From a virus (taxonomy: Duplodnaviria > Heunggongvirae > Uroviricota > Caudoviricetes), in the IMG/VR virus record IMGVR_UViG_2671180656_000004, positions 1 to 4,745 of that record: a stretch of DNA of 4,745 nucleotides; one strand, given 5' to 3'. The translations under genes and the position numbers were made by a program. Shown here in pieces: positions 1-4,745 of the stretch. Below the pieces are notes generated by a model. That model saw nothing but the letters and a program-made list of their open reading frames with translations, was not told where the DNA came from and did no database searches. Numbering within the stretch: position 1 is the stretch's first letter; each line of letters begins with the position of its first letter.

Positions 1-213
1 ATCATTGATTCAGCATCAGAAATTGAAGAATTACAGCGCAATACAGCAATAAAAATGCGTCGCCTGAACTACCAGACTGTATCCGCAACTCATTGTTGTG
101 AGTGTGGCGATCCGATAGATGAACGAAGACGCCTGGCAGTTCAGGGTTGTCGGACTTGTGCAAGTTGCCAGGAGGATCTGGAGCTTATCAGTAAACAGAG
201 AGGTTCGAAGTGA
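1..213 (+). CDS. TraR/DksA-family C4 zinc-finger protein, C-terminal fragment (5' end outside window)
   Basis: Frame 1 is open from base 1 to TGA 211-213 and translates ...HCCECGDPIDERRRLAVQGCRTCASCQEDLELISKQRGSK. Two CxxC pairs about 17 residues apart are typical of phage TraR/DksA C4 zinc fingers. The stop overlaps the next gene's GTG start (GTGA). Confidence 0.55.
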   Translation: MIDSASEIEELQRNTAIKMRRLNYQTVSATHCCECGDPIDERRRLAVQGCRTCASCQEDLELISKQRGSK

Positions 214-980
214 GCGAAATTAATTATCAGGCACTGCGTGAAAAGGCAGAAAAAGCAACTAAAGGAAGCTACATCGTAGGGCATACATCTGTTAACCAGC
301 ACGGCAATTTAACAGGAGTTTTTGTTTGCCAAAAATGGAAAGGAGAACCCGGTGGCGTGATTGCGGAATGTCATGTTAACTGCCTGATTGAATCAGATGC
401 TCAGGCTTATGCAAACGCTGAATTCATAGCAGAGGCTAACCCGGCTACCGTGCTGGAACTGCTGGATGAACGGGAAAGAAACCAGCAATACATCAAACGC
501 CGCGACCAGGAGAACGAGGGGATTGCGCTTACGGTTGGGAAGCTGCGTGTTGAGCTTGAAGCAGCAGAGAACAACCTTATTGATAGTGAATGCCATGTTG
601 CTGAACTGGAAGAAGCTCTACGCGATAAGCTGGCGTTACTTGAAGCCTCAGAAAAGCGCAACGCAAAATTACAAAGCGAGAATGCATACATCCGCAACCG
701 GTACAAAGAACTGGACCTATTAATCGGGAAAAACATTCTGGTCATGCAGGCTGCCATTATCGAATGGCAGGCAACTGGCGACGCTAAGAGCGGACTAGCA
801 TGGATTTATAACACACTGTTTGGCCCTGGCGAATTACCGGACGAATCTGAGAAAGATGCCCAGGCCTACTTTAATCGCAAATATGCACCGATTGACGAAA
901 AGCTTATGGCGCTTCACAAGTGGTTTTGGGAACAAAGTGAAGCCAAGCGCGCCGCTGGCATTCGCATCAAAGGAGAGTGA
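210..980 (+). CDS. ead/Ea22-like prophage protein with central coiled coil
   Basis: 256-aa ORF with GTG start at 210 preceded by AGAGAGG. N-terminus MSEINYQALREKAEKATKG resembles Ea22-like N-termini as I recall them. The middle (ELLDERERNQ...LQSENAYIRNRYKELD) has heptad-like charged/Leu periodicity. The position between a zinc-finger gene and xis/int fits the lambda ea region. Confidence 0.6.
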   Translation: MSEINYQALREKAEKATKGSYIVGHTSVNQHGNLTGVFVCQKWKGEPGGVIAECHVNCLIESDAQAYANAEFIAEANPATVLELLDERERNQQYIKRRDQENEGIALTVGKLRVELEAAENNLIDSECHVAELEEALRDKLALLEASEKRNAKLQSENAYIRNRYKELDLLIGKNILVMQAAIIEWQATGDAKSGLAWIYNTLFGPGELPDESEKDAQAYFNRKYAPIDEKLMALHKWFWEQSEAKRAAGIRIKGE

Positions 981-981
981 G

Positions 982-1497
982 ATGGCGTTAACACACCGAG
1001 AACTCTGTCAGATTGCGTACAAGTTCCTTAAGCGCAACGGGTTCAAGGTTTGCTTTCATGACCGCTTTATAGCCGTAACCAGTACCGGAGAACAGCCAGA
1101 TGCTATGGGATTCAGAAATTCAGCATCATGCCTGATAGAGGCGAAGTGTTCTCATGCTGACTTGTTGGCAGATAAAAAAAAGCGTTTCCGTAAAAATCCG
1201 TCTCTTGGAATGGGCGACTGGCGATTCTTTATTAGTGAGCCGGGAATTATTTCAATTGAGGATTTACCACCTGGCTGGGGATTACTTCACGTTGTTAACG
1301 GAAGAGTACGGAAAGTACATGGGTGGCCCAAGGGTAATTGCTGTTGGGGTAATCCTGACGATAAGCCATTTACTGGGAATAAGCAGGTTGAATGCGATTA
1401 CATGTTATCTGCATTAAGGCGCATGGAGTTGAGAGGGCACCTTAATGAAATATATGACGGTGTGATTGTTAATAAGAAAGAAGGAAACGCGGCATGA
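982..1497 (+). CDS. Hypothetical protein with N-terminal PD-(D/E)xK nuclease-like core
   Basis: ATG 982 lies 1 nt after the upstream stop with SD AAAGGAGAG at 969-977. The track's 820 start would overlap the upstream gene by 160 nt. Translation MALTHRELCQIAYKFLKRNGFKVCFHDRFIAVTSTGEQPDAMGFRNSASCLIEAKCS gives a helix Glu, a PD (codons 1096-1101) and an E-A-K (1138-1146) 12 residues later, in alpha-beta-beta-beta-alpha order. The C-terminal roughly 90 aa is unassigned. Confidence 0.6.
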   Translation: MALTHRELCQIAYKFLKRNGFKVCFHDRFIAVTSTGEQPDAMGFRNSASCLIEAKCSHADLLADKKKRFRKNPSLGMGDWRFFISEPGIISIEDLPPGWGLLHVVNGRVRKVHGWPKGNCCWGNPDDKPFTGNKQVECDYMLSALRRMELRGHLNEIYDGVIVNKKEGNAA

Positions 1498-2312
1498 TCA
1501 CTATTACCAAAGGGCGACTGCTGACAATCAAACAGTGGCGCGAAACATACGGACCTGGTAGCAACGTTGTACTGCCAGCAGAAGAAGCGGAAGAACTGGC
1601 ACGAATTGCTCTGGCAGCGCTGGAAGCCGAGCCGATAGGTTTCCGTTGCAGGCGCAATGATAACCTTGGTGATTGGAGTTACGTATATCATCGAGAGCCA
1701 GATGATTTTGAGCGCAAACATTTAGTGATAGAGGGCATTTACGCCGCCCCTCCAGCACCAGTAGTACCGGAAGAAAAACCAATGCCTAATCCTCTTAGCA
1801 TGTACGCGGTTGATGCTGTTGCCGCTATTGCAGAGGTGAGAGGCTGGAACGCCTGCCGTGCCGCTATGCTTCAGTCCGGAAACTTTCGGGAAAACAAGAA
1901 TTCGTCAACCAATAATTTTCGGGAAATCGCGGAAACGTCAACCAACTATCCGGTAATTCCTAGTGAGGTGTTGTCCGCAATCCTGAAGGTTGCCAAGATT
2001 CGTGCCGATGTCGATGATTTTGACGGTGACAGGCGAGGTATCGGTGATTGTCTGGATGAGGCTGAGCAAGAGCTTATCGTTACCATTAACAAATATGCCA
2101 GTCAGTTGGCAGTAGAGCCGGTAGTACCTGATGACGTTCGAGTGCAGACAGCCGTTCCGCCAGCTCCGGTAATACAGGCTGATATCGCGCAATCAATTGA
2201 AAATCTCAAGCAGAAGTTAGTGGAATGCAATCGCTATAACTACTGCGCAGATGCAGTTAAGGGCGTAGAGGATGCCTGCCGCGCTGCCATGCTTAAGGGA
2301 GATAAATCATGA
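1494..2312 (+). CDS. Hypothetical prophage protein with two internally duplicated modules (possibly DUF550-type)
   Basis: 272-aa ORF whose ATG overlaps the upstream stop (ATGA at 1494-1497). Two diverged modules share APPAPVV...Y.VDAV...ACRAAMLQ and VPPAPVI...Y.ADAV...ACRAAMLK. An acidic run DVDDFDGDRRGIGDCLDEAEQE lies between them. No family could be confirmed. Confidence 0.6.
   Translation: MITITKGRLLTIKQWRETYGPGSNVVLPAEEAEELARIALAALEAEPIGFRCRRNDNLGDWSYVYHREPDDFERKHLVIEGIYAAPPAPVVPEEKPMPNPLSMYAVDAVAAIAEVRGWNACRAAMLQSGNFRENKNSSTNNFREIAETSTNYPVIPSEVLSAILKVAKIRADVDDFDGDRRGIGDCLDEAEQELIVTINKYASQLAVEPVVPDDVRVQTAVPPAPVIQADIAQSIENLKQKLVECNRYNYCADAVKGVEDACRAAMLKGDKS
1881..1946 (+). repeat. Imperfect in-frame tandem duplication, 2 x 33 bp, inside CDS 1494..2312
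   Basis: Copy 1 (1881-1913) aactttcgggaaaacaagaattcgtcaaccaat and copy 2 (1914-1946) aattttcgggaaatcgcggaaacgtcaaccaac share about 24 of 33 positions. They encode NFRENKNSSTN / NFREIAETSTN. Confidence 0.5.
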
Positions 2313-2434
2313 TTAATCGTACCAAGCTGGAGCACATCCTCGAATATGCCAGACAGCAGAGGCATACTGGTCAGCATTGTAAAATTCCACCAGGGGATAT
2401 GGTTGAAATCATGGAGATTGAAGATAAGCTGTAG
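2309..2434 (+). CDS. Small hypothetical protein (41 aa), not in ORF track
   Basis: ATG 2309 overlaps the upstream stop (ATGA) and follows SD AAGGGAGA (2295-2302) with a 6-nt spacer. Translation MINRTKLEHILEYARQQRHTGQHCKIPPGDMVEIMEIEDKL has protein-like composition. It is below the ORF-track length cutoff. Confidence 0.35.
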   Translation: MINRTKLEHILEYARQQRHTGQHCKIPPGDMVEIMEIEDKL

Positions 2435-2630
2435 TGAGCGAATGCCGAACGATAAACAGTATGTTTGGTGTTGGGGGAAGTCTTACGGCTGGACTGAGTG
2501 CGATACCTTCGAAGGGTATTACGATTGTTCGAGAAACAAATGGTGGGCAGTTACTGACAATGGGGAAGAACCGGCATCGAAAGTAACCCACTGGATGCCG
2601 CTACCGGAGCCGCCGCAGGAGGTGAAATGA
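2403..2630 (+). CDS. DUF551-like small Trp-rich prophage protein (start uncertain: 2346, 2403, 2418 or 2442)
   Basis: The frame is open from 2346 and contains ...KISCSERMPNDKQYVWCWGKSYGWTECDTFEGYYDCSRNKWWAVTDNGEEPASKVTHWMPLPEPPQEVK. The CSERMP N-motif and THWMPLPEPP C-motif match my recollection of DUF551. ATG 2346 has no SD. TTG 2403 follows AGGGGA (2392-2397) with a 5-nt spacer. ATG 2442 would cut off the conserved CSERMP segment. Confidence 0.55.
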   Translation: MKSWRLKISCSERMPNDKQYVWCWGKSYGWTECDTFEGYYDCSRNKWWAVTDNGEEPASKVTHWMPLPEPPQEVK

Positions 2631-2713
2631 TGAATTGGCCTGAAGCATTCACCGCAGTTGGAGTTGCAATAGCGGTGGCATTTATTCTGTATTCGCTTTT
2701 CCGCTGGGGATAA
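2627..2713 (+). CDS. Putative 28-aa single-pass membrane peptide, not in ORF track
   Basis: ATGATG at 2627 overlaps the upstream TGA (ATGA) and follows a near-consensus SD GGAGGTG (2618-2624). Translation MMNWPEAFTAVGVAIAVAFILYSLFRWG is a roughly 20-residue hydrophobic helix with an aromatic/basic C-terminal end. It exactly fills the only 87-nt gap in this stretch. Confidence 0.35.
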   Translation: MMNWPEAFTAVGVAIAVAFILYSLFRWG

Positions 2714-2717
2714 AGGA

Positions 2718-2960
2718 ATGTTCGCTCTGATTCAACGTGGTCAGATATACACGGACAGAGCCGGATACCCTGTGGTGATTACTCGCAGTACTCAGCACTC
2801 AGTGTTCTTTCGACGCATGGACGGGCGCTCCGGACGGGTACGCATTGGTGAGTTCAACAACCTGTTCGAACATATTGACCAACAGGAGTACCGCAAAATT
2901 CTGGCGGGCACTGAGCAGGAAATGCGCCTGAAAAAATTACGCGCAATGCAACGGAGGTGA
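2718..2960 (+). CDS. Hypothetical small basic prophage protein (80 aa; possibly DUF4222-type)
   Basis: ATG 2718 is preceded by AAAGGAA (2711-2717). The 80-aa ORF is Arg/Lys-rich (MFALIQRGQIYTDRAGYPVVITRSTQHSVFFRRMDGRSGRVRIGEF...KKLRAMQRR). Its position just upstream of xis is typical for small lambdoid accessory proteins. The family assignment is from memory only. Confidence 0.55.
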   Translation: MFALIQRGQIYTDRAGYPVVITRSTQHSVFFRRMDGRSGRVRIGEFNNLFEHIDQQEYRKILAGTEQEMRLKKLRAMQRR

Positions 2961-2963
2961 TAC

Positions 2964-3098
2964 ATGCATACGGCTTTTGAGTTCTGGGTTCGCAAGACAT
3001 TCGGCAATCGCTACGACCTGACCCGTGATGTCGACGGCTTCTACTGCCGTGAAGTTGTGAAACGAATGTTTGACGTGTGGTGCCACTGCCGTGGATGA
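2964..3098 (+). CDS. Small hypothetical protein (44 aa), not in ORF track
   Basis: ATG 2964 follows a strong SD GGAGGTG (2953-2959) by 4 nt and sits 3 nt after the upstream stop. Translation MHTAFEFWVRKTFGNRYDLTRDVDGFYCREVVKRMFDVWCHCRG ends in a Cys/His cluster (C28, C40, H41, C42). It fills the gap before xis. Confidence 0.4.
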   Translation: MHTAFEFWVRKTFGNRYDLTRDVDGFYCREVVKRMFDVWCHCRG

Positions 3099-3116
3099 AA
3101 GTTTTATGAGGTTGGC

Positions 3117-3371
3117 ATGCAGACAATCATCTATCAGATAACCCCCAGCAAATGGTGTACGGAGAGAGTCCTTATTGCATCAACAGGGCTAAAGCCCGGC
3201 ACCATCGAGCGGGCCAGAAGAAAGTCATGGATGCAGGGAAAAGAATACCGCCATTACGCTGTAGAAGGTGATCCTGGGCATTACAGTGAATGCCTGTACA
3301 ACATCGAAGAAATTATGCGATGGATCGAAAACCAGAAACAACCAGGTGCCAAAAATGCAAGTTCCGGTTAA
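3117..3371 (+). CDS. xis: Excisionase-like protein
   Basis: 84-aa ORF immediately upstream of and co-directional with the integrase. GAGG lies upstream of ATG 3117. The small basic protein (ITPSKWCTERVLIASTGLKPGTIERARRK...) resembles the enterobacterial prophage excisionase-like family as I recall it. Confidence 0.6.
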   Translation: MQTIIYQITPSKWCTERVLIASTGLKPGTIERARRKSWMQGKEYRHYAVEGDPGHYSECLYNIEEIMRWIENQKQPGAKNASSG

Positions 3372-3404
3372 CCTGTTAATGCTCCTGGACGTCTGGGAGG
3401 TTTA

Positions 3405-4691
3405 ATGAGTAACGCATCATACCCGACAGGCGTTGAAAACCATGGCGGATCACTCCGTATATGGTTTCACTATAATGGCAAACGTGTCAGAGAAAACCTC
3501 GGTGTTCCTGACACAGCCAAAAACCGGAAGATCGCTGGTGAACTTCGCACTTCCGTTTGTTTTGCAATCAGAATGGGGAGTTTCGACTACGCCGCGCAGT
3601 TCCCTAATTCCCCTAACCTGAAACACTTTGGTCTGGGAAAAAGAGAGATAACCGTTAAGGCACTTTCGGAAAAATGGTTGGACCTTAAGAAAATTGAGAT
3701 TTGTGCGAATGCACTTAACCGTTACCAGTCAGTAATTAAAAACATGTTACCAATGTTAGGTGAAAAAAAACTGGTTTCATCCATAACAAAAGAGGATTTA
3801 CTTTTCGTAAGGAGAGATTTGTTGACCGGTTACCAAAAGCTTTCTAATGGAAAGACTTCTTCCATAAAAGGGCGCTCAGTGGTCACGGTAAACTACTATA
3901 TGACAACCATAGCTGGAATGTTTCAATTTGCAACAGATAATGGTTATACCTCAGGAAACCCATTTAACGGTCTGGCTCCCTTAAAAAAGTCCAAGGTAAA
4001 ACCAGATCCTCTCACCCGTGACGAATTTATTCGTTTTATTGAGGCTTGCCGTCATCAACAAACAAAAAACCTGTGGATTCTCGCTGTATACACGGGTATT
4101 CGTCACGGGGAGTTGGTATCGCTGGCATGGGAAGATATAGACCTTAAAGCAAGGACTATAACCATCCGTAGAAATTATACAAAACTTGGCGAATTCACTC
4201 CACCAAAAACCGATGCAGGCACCGGAAGGACAATTCATCTGGTTCAACCAGCTATTGATGCTCTTAAAAGCCAGGCGGAAATGACCATGCTTGGAAAGCA
4301 ACATTCTGTAGAGGTGAAGCAGAGGGAATATGGGAGAACTGCTGTGCATAAATGCACTTTTGTTTTTAGTCCTCAGGTAACAAAACAGCAGCAGTTGTCC
4401 GGACCTCACTACAAGGTTGACTCCATCAGGGAGTCATGGACAAGTATCTTAAAACGCGCAGGTCTGAGACACAGAAAATCGTACCAATCCAGGCATACTT
4501 ATGCATGCTGGTCACTTGCCGCAGGAGCTAATCCTAGTTTTATCGCAAGCCAGATGGGCCACACAAACGCACAAATGGTATTCAATGTTTACGGAGCATG
4601 GATGAAAGACAACAATCACGAACAGATAGAACTCCTTAACAAAAGACTATCTGAAAGTGTCCCATGTATGCCCCATAAGAAAGCAGGGTAA
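3405..4691 (+). CDS. int: Phage integrase, tyrosine site-specific recombinase (Rac/e14-like lambdoid type)
   Basis: 428-aa ORF with SD GGAGG (3393-3397) before ATG 3405. The C-terminal catalytic domain has box I Arg (YTGIRHGELVSLAWEDIDL), box II SRHTYACW, His in MGHTNAQM and the nucleophile Tyr in NVYGAW. The N-terminal arm-binding-type domain starts MSNASYPTGVENHGGSLRIWFHYNGKRVRENL. Confidence 0.93.
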   Translation: MSNASYPTGVENHGGSLRIWFHYNGKRVRENLGVPDTAKNRKIAGELRTSVCFAIRMGSFDYAAQFPNSPNLKHFGLGKREITVKALSEKWLDLKKIEICANALNRYQSVIKNMLPMLGEKKLVSSITKEDLLFVRRDLLTGYQKLSNGKTSSIKGRSVVTVNYYMTTIAGMFQFATDNGYTSGNPFNGLAPLKKSKVKPDPLTRDEFIRFIEACRHQQTKNLWILAVYTGIRHGELVSLAWEDIDLKARTITIRRNYTKLGEFTPPKTDAGTGRTIHLVQPAIDALKSQAEMTMLGKQHSVEVKQREYGRTAVHKCTFVFSPQVTKQQQLSGPHYKVDSIRESWTSILKRAGLRHRKSYQSRHTYACWSLAAGANPSFIASQMGHTNAQMVFNVYGAWMKDNNHEQIELLNKRLSESVPCMPHKKAG

Positions 4692-4724
4692 AATAAAAAC
4701 TTGCAAAATCAATTAGTTTACCCT
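4685..4724. other. 8-bp inverted repeat flanking an AT-rich 24-bp spacer just after the int stop; possible att-proximal or integrase-binding element
   Basis: agggtaaa (4685-4692) is the exact reverse complement of tttaccct (4717-4724). The spacer is ataaaaacttgcaaaatcaattag. Too weak and wide-looped for a clear rho-independent terminator. Its position matches where attL/attR-type sites sit next to int. Confidence 0.2.
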
Positions 4725-4745
4725 TAATCCCTGTCACGTTACGCG

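Follow-up and report, generated by a model that had tools for sequence, protein, structure and literature searches.

Type I toxins such as Hok/Gef, TisB, LdrD, IbsC, ShoB and DinQ are peptides of 19–50 amino acids (aa) with a single hydrophobic helix and are often borne by prophages or plasmids. In LdrD, an aromatic/basic motif follows the helix. Other small membrane proteins of Escherichia coli, also with a single helix, are KdpF (29 aa), MgtS (31 aa), AcrZ (49 aa), MgrB (47 aa), CydX (37 aa) and PmrR (29 aa); the small regulators of this organism exert their effect by packing onto a larger protein of the membrane. Here, we analyzed a small open reading frame (ORF) for a peptide of this size class, with one predicted helix, at positions 2627–2713 of a 4,745-nucleotide (nt) stretch of viral DNA (Duplodnaviria; Heunggongvirae; Uroviricota; Caudoviricetes; IMG/VR record IMGVR_UViG_2671180656_000004, positions 1 to 4,745), which is called the window throughout. 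With a probability of roughly 0.8, the overall best explanation would be a genuine gene that is translationally coupled to its upstream neighbor, is expressed early and encodes a single-pass inner-membrane microprotein.

The window comes from a lambdoid prophage of the Shiga toxin (Stx) 1 type and covers the exo-xis ('ea') end of its early-left operon. The exo-xis region is reported to be driven by the promoter pL and to belong to the earliest transcribed phage regions, with particularly high levels of ea22 in Stx phages (PMC10834534). Ea22 variant 2 carries the DUF551 end, to which the small ORF would be coupled (PMC10834534). The predicted peptide would resemble Ea22, Ea8.5, Orf60a, Orf61, Orf63 and Orf73 in its operon, early expression, accessory nature and mosaic distribution. 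However, the described exo-xis/ea products are all soluble, unlike the predicted membrane peptide, and a review in which every protein of the exo-xis region was modeled names no transmembrane protein (PMC8614690).

Phage-encoded accessory proteins that are embedded in the membrane, as predicted for the peptide, and dispensable for growth include the exclusion proteins T4 Imm, lambda SieB and HK97 gp15 and the holin/antiholin-type peptides, which act on the host envelope. In contrast to the peptide, these proteins are longer (~60–190 aa), and those expressed in lysogens have promoters of their own (moron layout). KdpF and CydX are encoded in the same operons as their partners, whereas the phage-borne peptide has no consistently adjacent partner gene.

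Start codon, ribosome-binding site and coding signature

The ORF extends on the + strand from 2627 to 2713, encodes the 28-aa sequence MMNWPEAFTAVGVAIAVAFILYSLFRWG and ends with a TAA stop codon at 2711–2713. An earlier note on this DNA had reported a 28-aa ORF starting from the ATGATG at 2627 with a GGAGGTG upstream, and both were located at these positions. The GGAGGTG, a Shine-Dalgarno (SD) sequence, occupies positions 2618–2624 (core GGAGG at 2618–2622), inside the final codons of the DUF551 gene located upstream. The TGA stop codon of this DUF551/Ea22-type gene at 2628–2630 overlaps both candidate start codons. The first in-frame ATG (2627–2629) forms the tetranucleotide ATGA (2627–2630) with this stop codon, in agreement with the overlap described in the earlier note, is located 4 nt after GGAGG and gives a product of 28 aa. 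The second ATG (2630–2632), 7 nt after GGAGG, gives the 27-aa product MNWPEAF...RWG.

We take the second ATG as the probable start codon of the family, because position 2630 aligns with the sole ATG of all other variants while position 2627 is GTG in some close relatives. The first ATG is allele-specific; it is missing in most family members and replaced by GTG in five close relatives. The upstream gene has one codon fewer in the window allele; this shortening created the extra ATG at 2627, a possible additional start. The ideal SD spacing that had been claimed for this ORF therefore applies best to the ATG at 2630 (7 nt, compared with 4 nt for the one at 2627), and a 28-aa product would be made if the first ATG is used, whereas the conserved family start leads to 27 aa. 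In the peptide frame, a stop codon at 2555–2557 is followed by no further start codon until 2627. A stop-free run of 27 codons is expected by chance in 21% of cases (random codons of the window's composition). As the length of the ORF is unremarkable by chance, the case rests on the comparison with other copies.

For this comparison, an 84-nt degenerate search pattern, ATGNNNTGGCCNGANGCN(N12)GGN(N39)MGNTGGNNNTRR, was built from the invariant residues. It matched once in the window and in none of 200 shuffles. The collection comprised 213 intact copies, which came from phages, prophages, IMG/VR and metagenomes and represent 81 distinct DNAs and 43 variants of the peptide; each of the 213 copies found with this pattern of fixed length encodes exactly 27 aa without any indel. 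The consensus of the family is MTWPEAFTTVGIAMAVALVVYSICRWG. The window allele belongs to a divergent branch and has F instead of C at position 24.

The substitutions among these copies follow the peptide frame. The pairwise ratio of nonsynonymous to synonymous substitution rates (dN/dS) was 0.24 in the peptide frame versus 1.06 and 2.0 in the other sense frames. For the 19 codons left free by the search pattern it was 0.33, with a column entropy of 0.47, 0.35 and 0.87 at the first, second and third codon position, respectively. To remove the non-independence of the sequences, changes in the unconstrained codons were also counted by parsimony on a neighbor-joining tree of the 81 sequences. This yielded 46, 43 and 108 changes at codon positions 1, 2 and 3 (chi-square p = 1e-9), hence third positions changed 2.4 times more often. 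Residues M1, W3, P4, A6, G11 and W26 are invariant; most of them are fixed by the pattern, but they hold also in a set obtained by tblastn without the pattern. Elsewhere, hydrophobic residues were replaced by other hydrophobic residues. The other two sense frames contain stop codons in nearly all copies. One antisense frame is mostly open with a pN/pS (the corresponding polymorphism ratio) of 0.35, but it lacks a conserved start or stop codon and would enter the unrelated flanks; this signal is the mirror effect to be expected when third positions are shared. The comparative data show positions 2627/2630–2713 of the window to be a genuine coding gene under purifying selection at the protein level. 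A synonymous-site pattern that fits coding had been named in the earlier note as a touchstone, and purifying selection was found in the peptide frame only.

A cassette with interchangeable flanks

The boundaries of the conserved segment were analyzed in 6951 pairs of copies with ORFs differing at 8 or more positions. Flank identity was 0.25–0.35 from position −90 to about −40 and crept up to 0.4–0.5 by −13. It reached 0.79 at −12 to −7, where GGAGG is located, was 0.6–0.99 across the ORF and fell to 0.31 in the first six bases past the stop codon. Because the similarity starts at the SD sequence and ends at the stop codon, the conserved unit is exactly the SD sequence plus the ORF.

The genes on either side of this unit vary. 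Upstream, at least six unrelated gene ends were found: the DUF551 tails (...PLPEPPQEVNQ), ...RNGLISVEDILR, the 933W L0139 type (...NDLKNIEQEVNR), ...DCVIAGIGVEVK, ...KKKGMNQ and ...AVWRLEVR; most of these upstream proteins matched no Pfam family. Downstream, about ten contexts occur, among them the DUF4222 gene, hok/sok, intrinsic terminators of at least four kinds, other small genes and a convergent gene. The DUF4222 gene begins 4 nt past the peptide stop codon in the window, and the same junction is present in ~93 copies. In about one quarter of the copies, a hok/sok-type locus (hokW/sokW, hokD) directly follows the peptide stop codon. As a separate observation, the hok promoter region would fall at or just past the end of the small ORF in these arrangements (933W, loci L007/L008, 1201–1650; E. 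coli chromosomes, loci L221 and L222). Altogether, more than 30 upstream-by-downstream combinations exist, and a single peptide allele was preceded by three different upstream genes and followed by five different downstream contexts. The compared loci show that the SD sequence and the ORF form a self-contained cassette that was recombined behind many phage accessory genes. The interchangeable flanks argue against a role tied to any single neighbor.

Overlap between the stop codon of the preceding gene and the start codon was present in 212 of the 214 pattern matches, as ATGA in 144 and as TGATG or TAATG in 68. One of the two non-overlapping matches (L118) is a chance match in an open frame and not a family member. 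Codon 2 specifies T, S, N or I, and its first base is always A, with no change there versus 13 changes at its second base. This invariant A was not imposed by the search pattern and is the imprint of the overlapping stop codon. GGAGG is located 5–10 nt before the start codon in 53 of the 63 distinct upstream contexts, and 62 of the 63 have some SD-like tetramer. Thus, the ORF and its SD sequence are conserved at homologous loci across unrelated upstream genes, the very point on which the earlier note had proposed that its prediction could fail. Stop/start overlaps are a recognized device for coupling by termination and reinitiation (Huber et al. 2019).

Predicted helix, proposed role and rival explanations

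A transmembrane helix, AFTAVGVAIAVAFILYSLF, is predicted for nucleotides 2645–2701 on the + strand (residues 6–24 in the 27-aa numbering) and followed by RWG, as had been described from the window alone. The best 19-residue segment has a mean Kyte-Doolittle hydropathy of 2.07–2.28 in three variants, with 2.28 for the window allele. In 40 of the 43 variants, positions 7–24 contain no charged residue. One face of the helix consists of small residues, G11 in all 43 variants, A13 in 31, A15 in 41 and A17 in 37, and aromatic residues (W3; Y21 in 39 of 43; W26) are found at both interfaces. The N-terminal flank carries a charge of −1 and the C-terminal flank a charge of +1. Because of the acidic N-terminal and the basic C-terminal flank, an N-out/C-in topology is predicted by the positive-inside rule.

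Known families provided no assignment. In Pfam at E ≤ 1, the peptide gave only sub-threshold matches to DUF883_C, B12D and PTR2 and none to a toxin family; the glycine-zipper region of DUF883_C (PF19029) scored 13.2–14.0 bits (E = 0.04–0.07) and did not reach the gathering threshold of 27 bits. The best NCBIfam score, 14.7 bits against a cut-off of 26.85 (E = 0.024), was obtained by one variant for KdpF (TIGR02115). Among the PHROGs, 13 variants produced scattered matches at E ≥ 0.0065 to seven PHROGs, none of them consistent, and a match to a holin-family PHROG was at chance level (E = 0.11). No peptide match above threshold was found in PADLOC or among the PDB sequences. The peptide was filed as a new, unnamed family of single-helix small membrane proteins. 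At the RNA level, no Rfam family, Sok included, matched anywhere in the window at E ≤ 1, and z scores of 0.13 and −0.37 for the two strands gave no indication of a stable fold.

In the proposed scenario, transcription of the small gene would occur as part of the early-left (pL) exo-xis operon, whose Ea22-type genes, xis and int lie on the same strand; the gene would be expressed after infection or induction but remain silent in the repressed prophage. Ribosomes ending translation at the TGA of the DUF551 gene would reinitiate at the overlapping ATG, aided by the strong GGAGG. The product would enter the inner membrane as one helix, with the acidic WPEA N-terminus facing outward and the basic RWG end in the cytoplasm. 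It may act by helix-helix packing through the face formed by G11, A13, A15 and A17, framed by W3, Y21 and W26, which is also the mode deemed most likely from the comparison with the small E. coli regulators. The target could be a membrane protein of the host, or the peptide could bind to itself and form an oligomer; the effect would be an altered physiology of the host membrane early after infection or induction.

For this last step, judged from the features of the helix, we tentatively favor a modulator of a host membrane protein; a toxin that damages or depolarizes the membrane appears a less probable, though serious, candidate, and the remainder goes to other functions, e.g. phage exclusion. 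A more specific proposal, which we consider doubtful, is that the peptide is an unrecognized exo-xis/ea effector acting on a host inner-membrane complex (e.g. a protease, the division machinery or a transport machine) and thereby tunes the lysis-lysogeny decision, the efficiency of induction or the Stx yield. If so, the peptide being coupled to the ea22-type genes, its loss would account for part of the phenotypes published for deletions in the region.

Several points weigh against the reading as a coupled, early-expressed membrane microprotein. The search pattern fixes eight residues in most of the collected members and so inflates the apparent conservation; this was corrected for by recomputing the 19 unconstrained codons, and the pattern-free tblastn set agrees. 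In the window, a 41-nt deletion splits the upstream gene, and coupling may be weaker here than elsewhere. The functional step, partner binding or toxicity, is read from features of the sequence, and a GxxxA-type face is common among membrane helices. Phage Phi24B (HM208303; L224, 2830–3735), the best-studied Stx phage for this region, encodes an Ea22 with the same DUF551 tail (...PPQEVNRG*) and has no small ORF behind it. The ORF is hence dispensable, and the results obtained with Phi24B do not cover the peptide. In the ribosome profiling (RIBOseq) study of enterohemorrhagic E. coli (EHEC) strain Sakai, only ORFs of at least 30 aa were scored, and lysogens keep the operon repressed. The peptide strings were not found in the searchable literature. 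The peptide is also missing in the supplementary material of both the Sakai RIBOseq paper and a preprint on the Enterobacteriaceae microproteome, and it is not mentioned in reviews of phage small proteins and of the exo-xis proteins.

Among the rival explanations, a toxin of the type I toxin-antitoxin kind (Hok, TisB, Ldr, Ibs, ShoB, DinQ), which would be made on induction and depolarize the membrane so as to shut down or kill the host, survives best, although we regard it as unlikely. Size and shape match, with 27 aa, one helix and an aromatic/basic C-terminal end; the repressed early operon would tolerate toxicity, and about one quarter of the copies lie immediately upstream of a hok/sok locus. 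That adjacency, however, is just one of the ~10 downstream contexts. Unlike the type I toxins, the peptide has no match to a toxin family in Pfam (E ≤ 1), no Rfam antisense RNA such as Sok in the window, no promoter-like site of its own within 2200–3200 and no structured 5′ region, as the fold analysis of both strands indicated. Moreover, a strong SD sequence and coupling within an operon are the opposite of the blocked translation that is typical of translationally silenced type I toxins.

Far less probable is that translation alone matters and that the ORF serves as a coupling or spacer element which passes ribosomes on to the DUF4222 gene, with the peptide as a by-product. The ATGA overlap before and the 4-nt gap after the ORF, in the window as in ~93 other copies, would suit such a function. 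It does not explain the constraint on the amino acids (dN/dS of 0.24–0.33; W3, P4, A6, G11 and W26 invariant), and in many copies the next element is an intrinsic terminator or a gene in convergent orientation, which leaves no downstream partner for coupling.

We see still less reason to regard the segment as a conserved DNA 'linker' for module exchange between lambdoid phages, or as a non-coding RNA or antisense element. An 84-nt conserved block between interchangeable modules in more than 30 combinations is what a linker would look like, and the mostly open antisense frame might be counted in favor of an antisense element. Yet the substitutions have a three-base periodicity, the 81 distinct sequences contain no indel, and ATG, stop codon and sense-strand SD sequence are all kept; there is neither an Rfam match nor fold stability, and the antisense frame is explained by the mirror effect mentioned above. 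A conserved coding block can double as a recombination site, the two roles being compatible. Finally, the idea of a membrane-anchor extension of the Ea22/DUF551 protein by programmed −1 frameshifting can be set aside as highly improbable: the peptide frame is indeed in −1 relative to the upstream gene and, in the window, stays open over the 23 codons before the ORF, but this open stretch measures 1–49 codons across the contexts, with stop codons 1–7 codons before the ATG in ~11 of them, there is no slippery heptamer, and the upstream partners are unrelated proteins while ATG and SD sequence are conserved. A protein cluster at first seemed to link the peptide with 121-aa DUF551 proteins, but these proteins lack the peptide, and the apparent fusion was rejected as an artefact of partial ORFs.

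Genomic context, distribution and significance

All genes of the window are on the + strand and densely packed. The end part of a TraR/DksA-type zinc-finger gene (1–213) is followed by three Ead/Ea22-type genes (210–980, 982–1497 and 1494–2312). The 256-aa Ead/Ea22-type protein encoded at 210–980 matched the PADLOC model 'DpdH' with residues 147–244 (E = 1.7e-36); this may be a defense-system model that simply shares an Ead/Ea22-like domain. Next come a 41-aa ORF (2309–2434), the N-terminal remnant of a split Ea22-V2/DUF551 gene according to the alignment with EDL933, and the upstream partner of the small ORF, the C-terminal part of the Ea22-type gene with the DUF551 domain (2442–2630; Pfam DUF551, E = 4e-12). 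Downstream of the small ORF (2627–2713 including TAA) are the DUF4222 gene (2718–2960; Pfam DUF4222, E = 9e-16; phrog_285), a 44-aa gene (2964–3098; phrog_3871, E = 1e-32), and xis (3117–3371) and int (3405–4691). The 44-aa ORF has a RefSeq annotation in addition to its own PHROG, and genes slightly longer than 27 aa are routinely called.

Most junctions are tight: neighboring genes overlap by ATGA at 1494 and 2309, and spacers of 4 and 3 nt are found at 2713/2718 and 2960/2964, respectively. The earlier note had presented the small ORF as filling the sole gap longer than 4 nt in this part of the operon. This is correct insofar as the other nearby junctions overlap or measure 3–4 nt, but there is a 7-nt gap at 2434/2442, and gaps of 18 and 33 nt precede xis and int, respectively. 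The 7-nt gap is the product of a deletion: 41 nt of the Ea22-V2/DUF551 gene of CP-933V in EDL933 are missing in the window, with the junction at 2420/2421. The DUF551 frame is open from 2346, and after the split a restart at 2442 or 2346 is required. The gene preceding the peptide is probably a pseudogene or split gene in the window. A motif scan detected no promoter- or terminator-like sites in the segment 2200–3200. The closest relatives of 2300–3100, with 99.5% identity, are CP-933V of EDL933, YYZ-2008 and VT1-Sakai. As a whole, the window is mosaic, and the best complete E. coli genome covers 76% of it in four to five pieces.

The host range was drawn solely from collections of E. coli genomes, phages, plasmids, IMG/VR and metagenomes. 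In translated searches of phage genomes, Stx1-type phages had the identical peptide, and peptides with 48–70% identity were present in 933W, VT2-Sakai, Min27, Stx2 I/II, ArgO145 and many others; in total, 90–99 phage records contain the family, including 933W, VT1-Sakai and VT2-Sakai. With a 105-nt query, it was detected in 1600 of 5426 complete E. coli genomes (~29%), at up to seven places each; 138 of the places are plasmid-borne. A translated search yielded 180 plasmid records, assigned to Escherichia (154), Salmonella (25) and Klebsiella (1). The plasmids are non-mobilizable in 174 of the 180 records and ~86–111 kb in size for most of those listed. The IncY (P1-like) plasmid pIso00270_01 has the layout of DUF551 gene plus peptide, with an unannotated gap of 82 nt (L223, 2208–2586). 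In IMG/VR, at least 428 members were confirmed among the 600 candidates listed, and metagenomes contributed at least 120 pattern matches. Further contexts are nin-region-like and lie behind replication genes.

Some copies with lambdoid Ead/Ea22-type neighbors come from records that are placed in the Vequintavirinae or list a non-enterobacterial host, such as Av-05 (NC_025830; L010, 1201–1284), TH18, 18-1-2, 19-1-2 and 'Actinobacillus phage vB_Apl-pPE4'. These could represent real transfer, chimeric assembly or contamination. Rare length variants (P0033, P0023 and P0026) were observed as well: a 31-aa form whose helix contains an in-frame duplication of AVAV, a 30-aa form with three additional N-terminal residues, and a 29-aa form with two additional C-terminal residues. 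Two copies are disrupted. In vB_EcoS-689R5 (L012, 1199–1309), 1 nt is deleted after the ATG, and owing to this deletion the record annotates a 36-aa coding sequence in the wrong frame. In POCJ13 (L014, 1201–1284), the W3 codon TGG is changed to TAG, beneath an annotated coding sequence on the opposite strand.

At the site of the peptide, RefSeq and almost all GenBank phage records leave 82–87 nt blank. This applies to EDL933, YYZ-2008, BP-4795, the Stx1a phages, phi330, 933W and Stx2 II, and also to ArgO145, Av-05, two further E. coli chromosomes and the IncY plasmid. A look-up of exact sequences showed that a few submitters had called the gene (ASL58468.1, 28 aa; ETI78407.1, 27 aa; AOM45384.1 and others for a variant), labeled as 'hypothetical' or 'bacteriophage protein'. 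The description of the ORF as unannotated consequently holds for RefSeq, with its annotation pipeline PGAP, and most GenBank phage records, but not for these few submissions. Among 1.84 billion representative proteins, a padded 31-aa query retrieved 14 entries, which were small ORFs, a few variants of 29–31 aa and mis-calls, and no longer parent protein containing the peptide was present. In a separate protein search, a 40-aa query padded with upstream out-of-frame residues retrieved two clusters only. In sum, the comparative evidence strongly supports the original proposal of a genuine small membrane-peptide gene with a ribosome-binding site that was missed by annotation.

A gene that is present in about three of ten complete E. 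coli genomes, in reference Stx phages and in P1-like plasmids is nevertheless blank in RefSeq, and its peptide family is absent from Pfam, PHROGs and NCBIfam. The comparative signals used here, similarity bounded by the SD sequence and the stop codon and an invariant first base of codon 2, can rescue genes below the length cut-off of annotation. The peptide is short, easily synthesized and removable by a single nonsense codon, and its role is quickly testable. The exo-xis genes are under study for their roles in lysogeny, induction and toxin production, and no membrane protein has been described among them. Because the peptide is probably coupled to the preceding gene, deletions of or insertions into ea22-type genes may silence it unnoticed.

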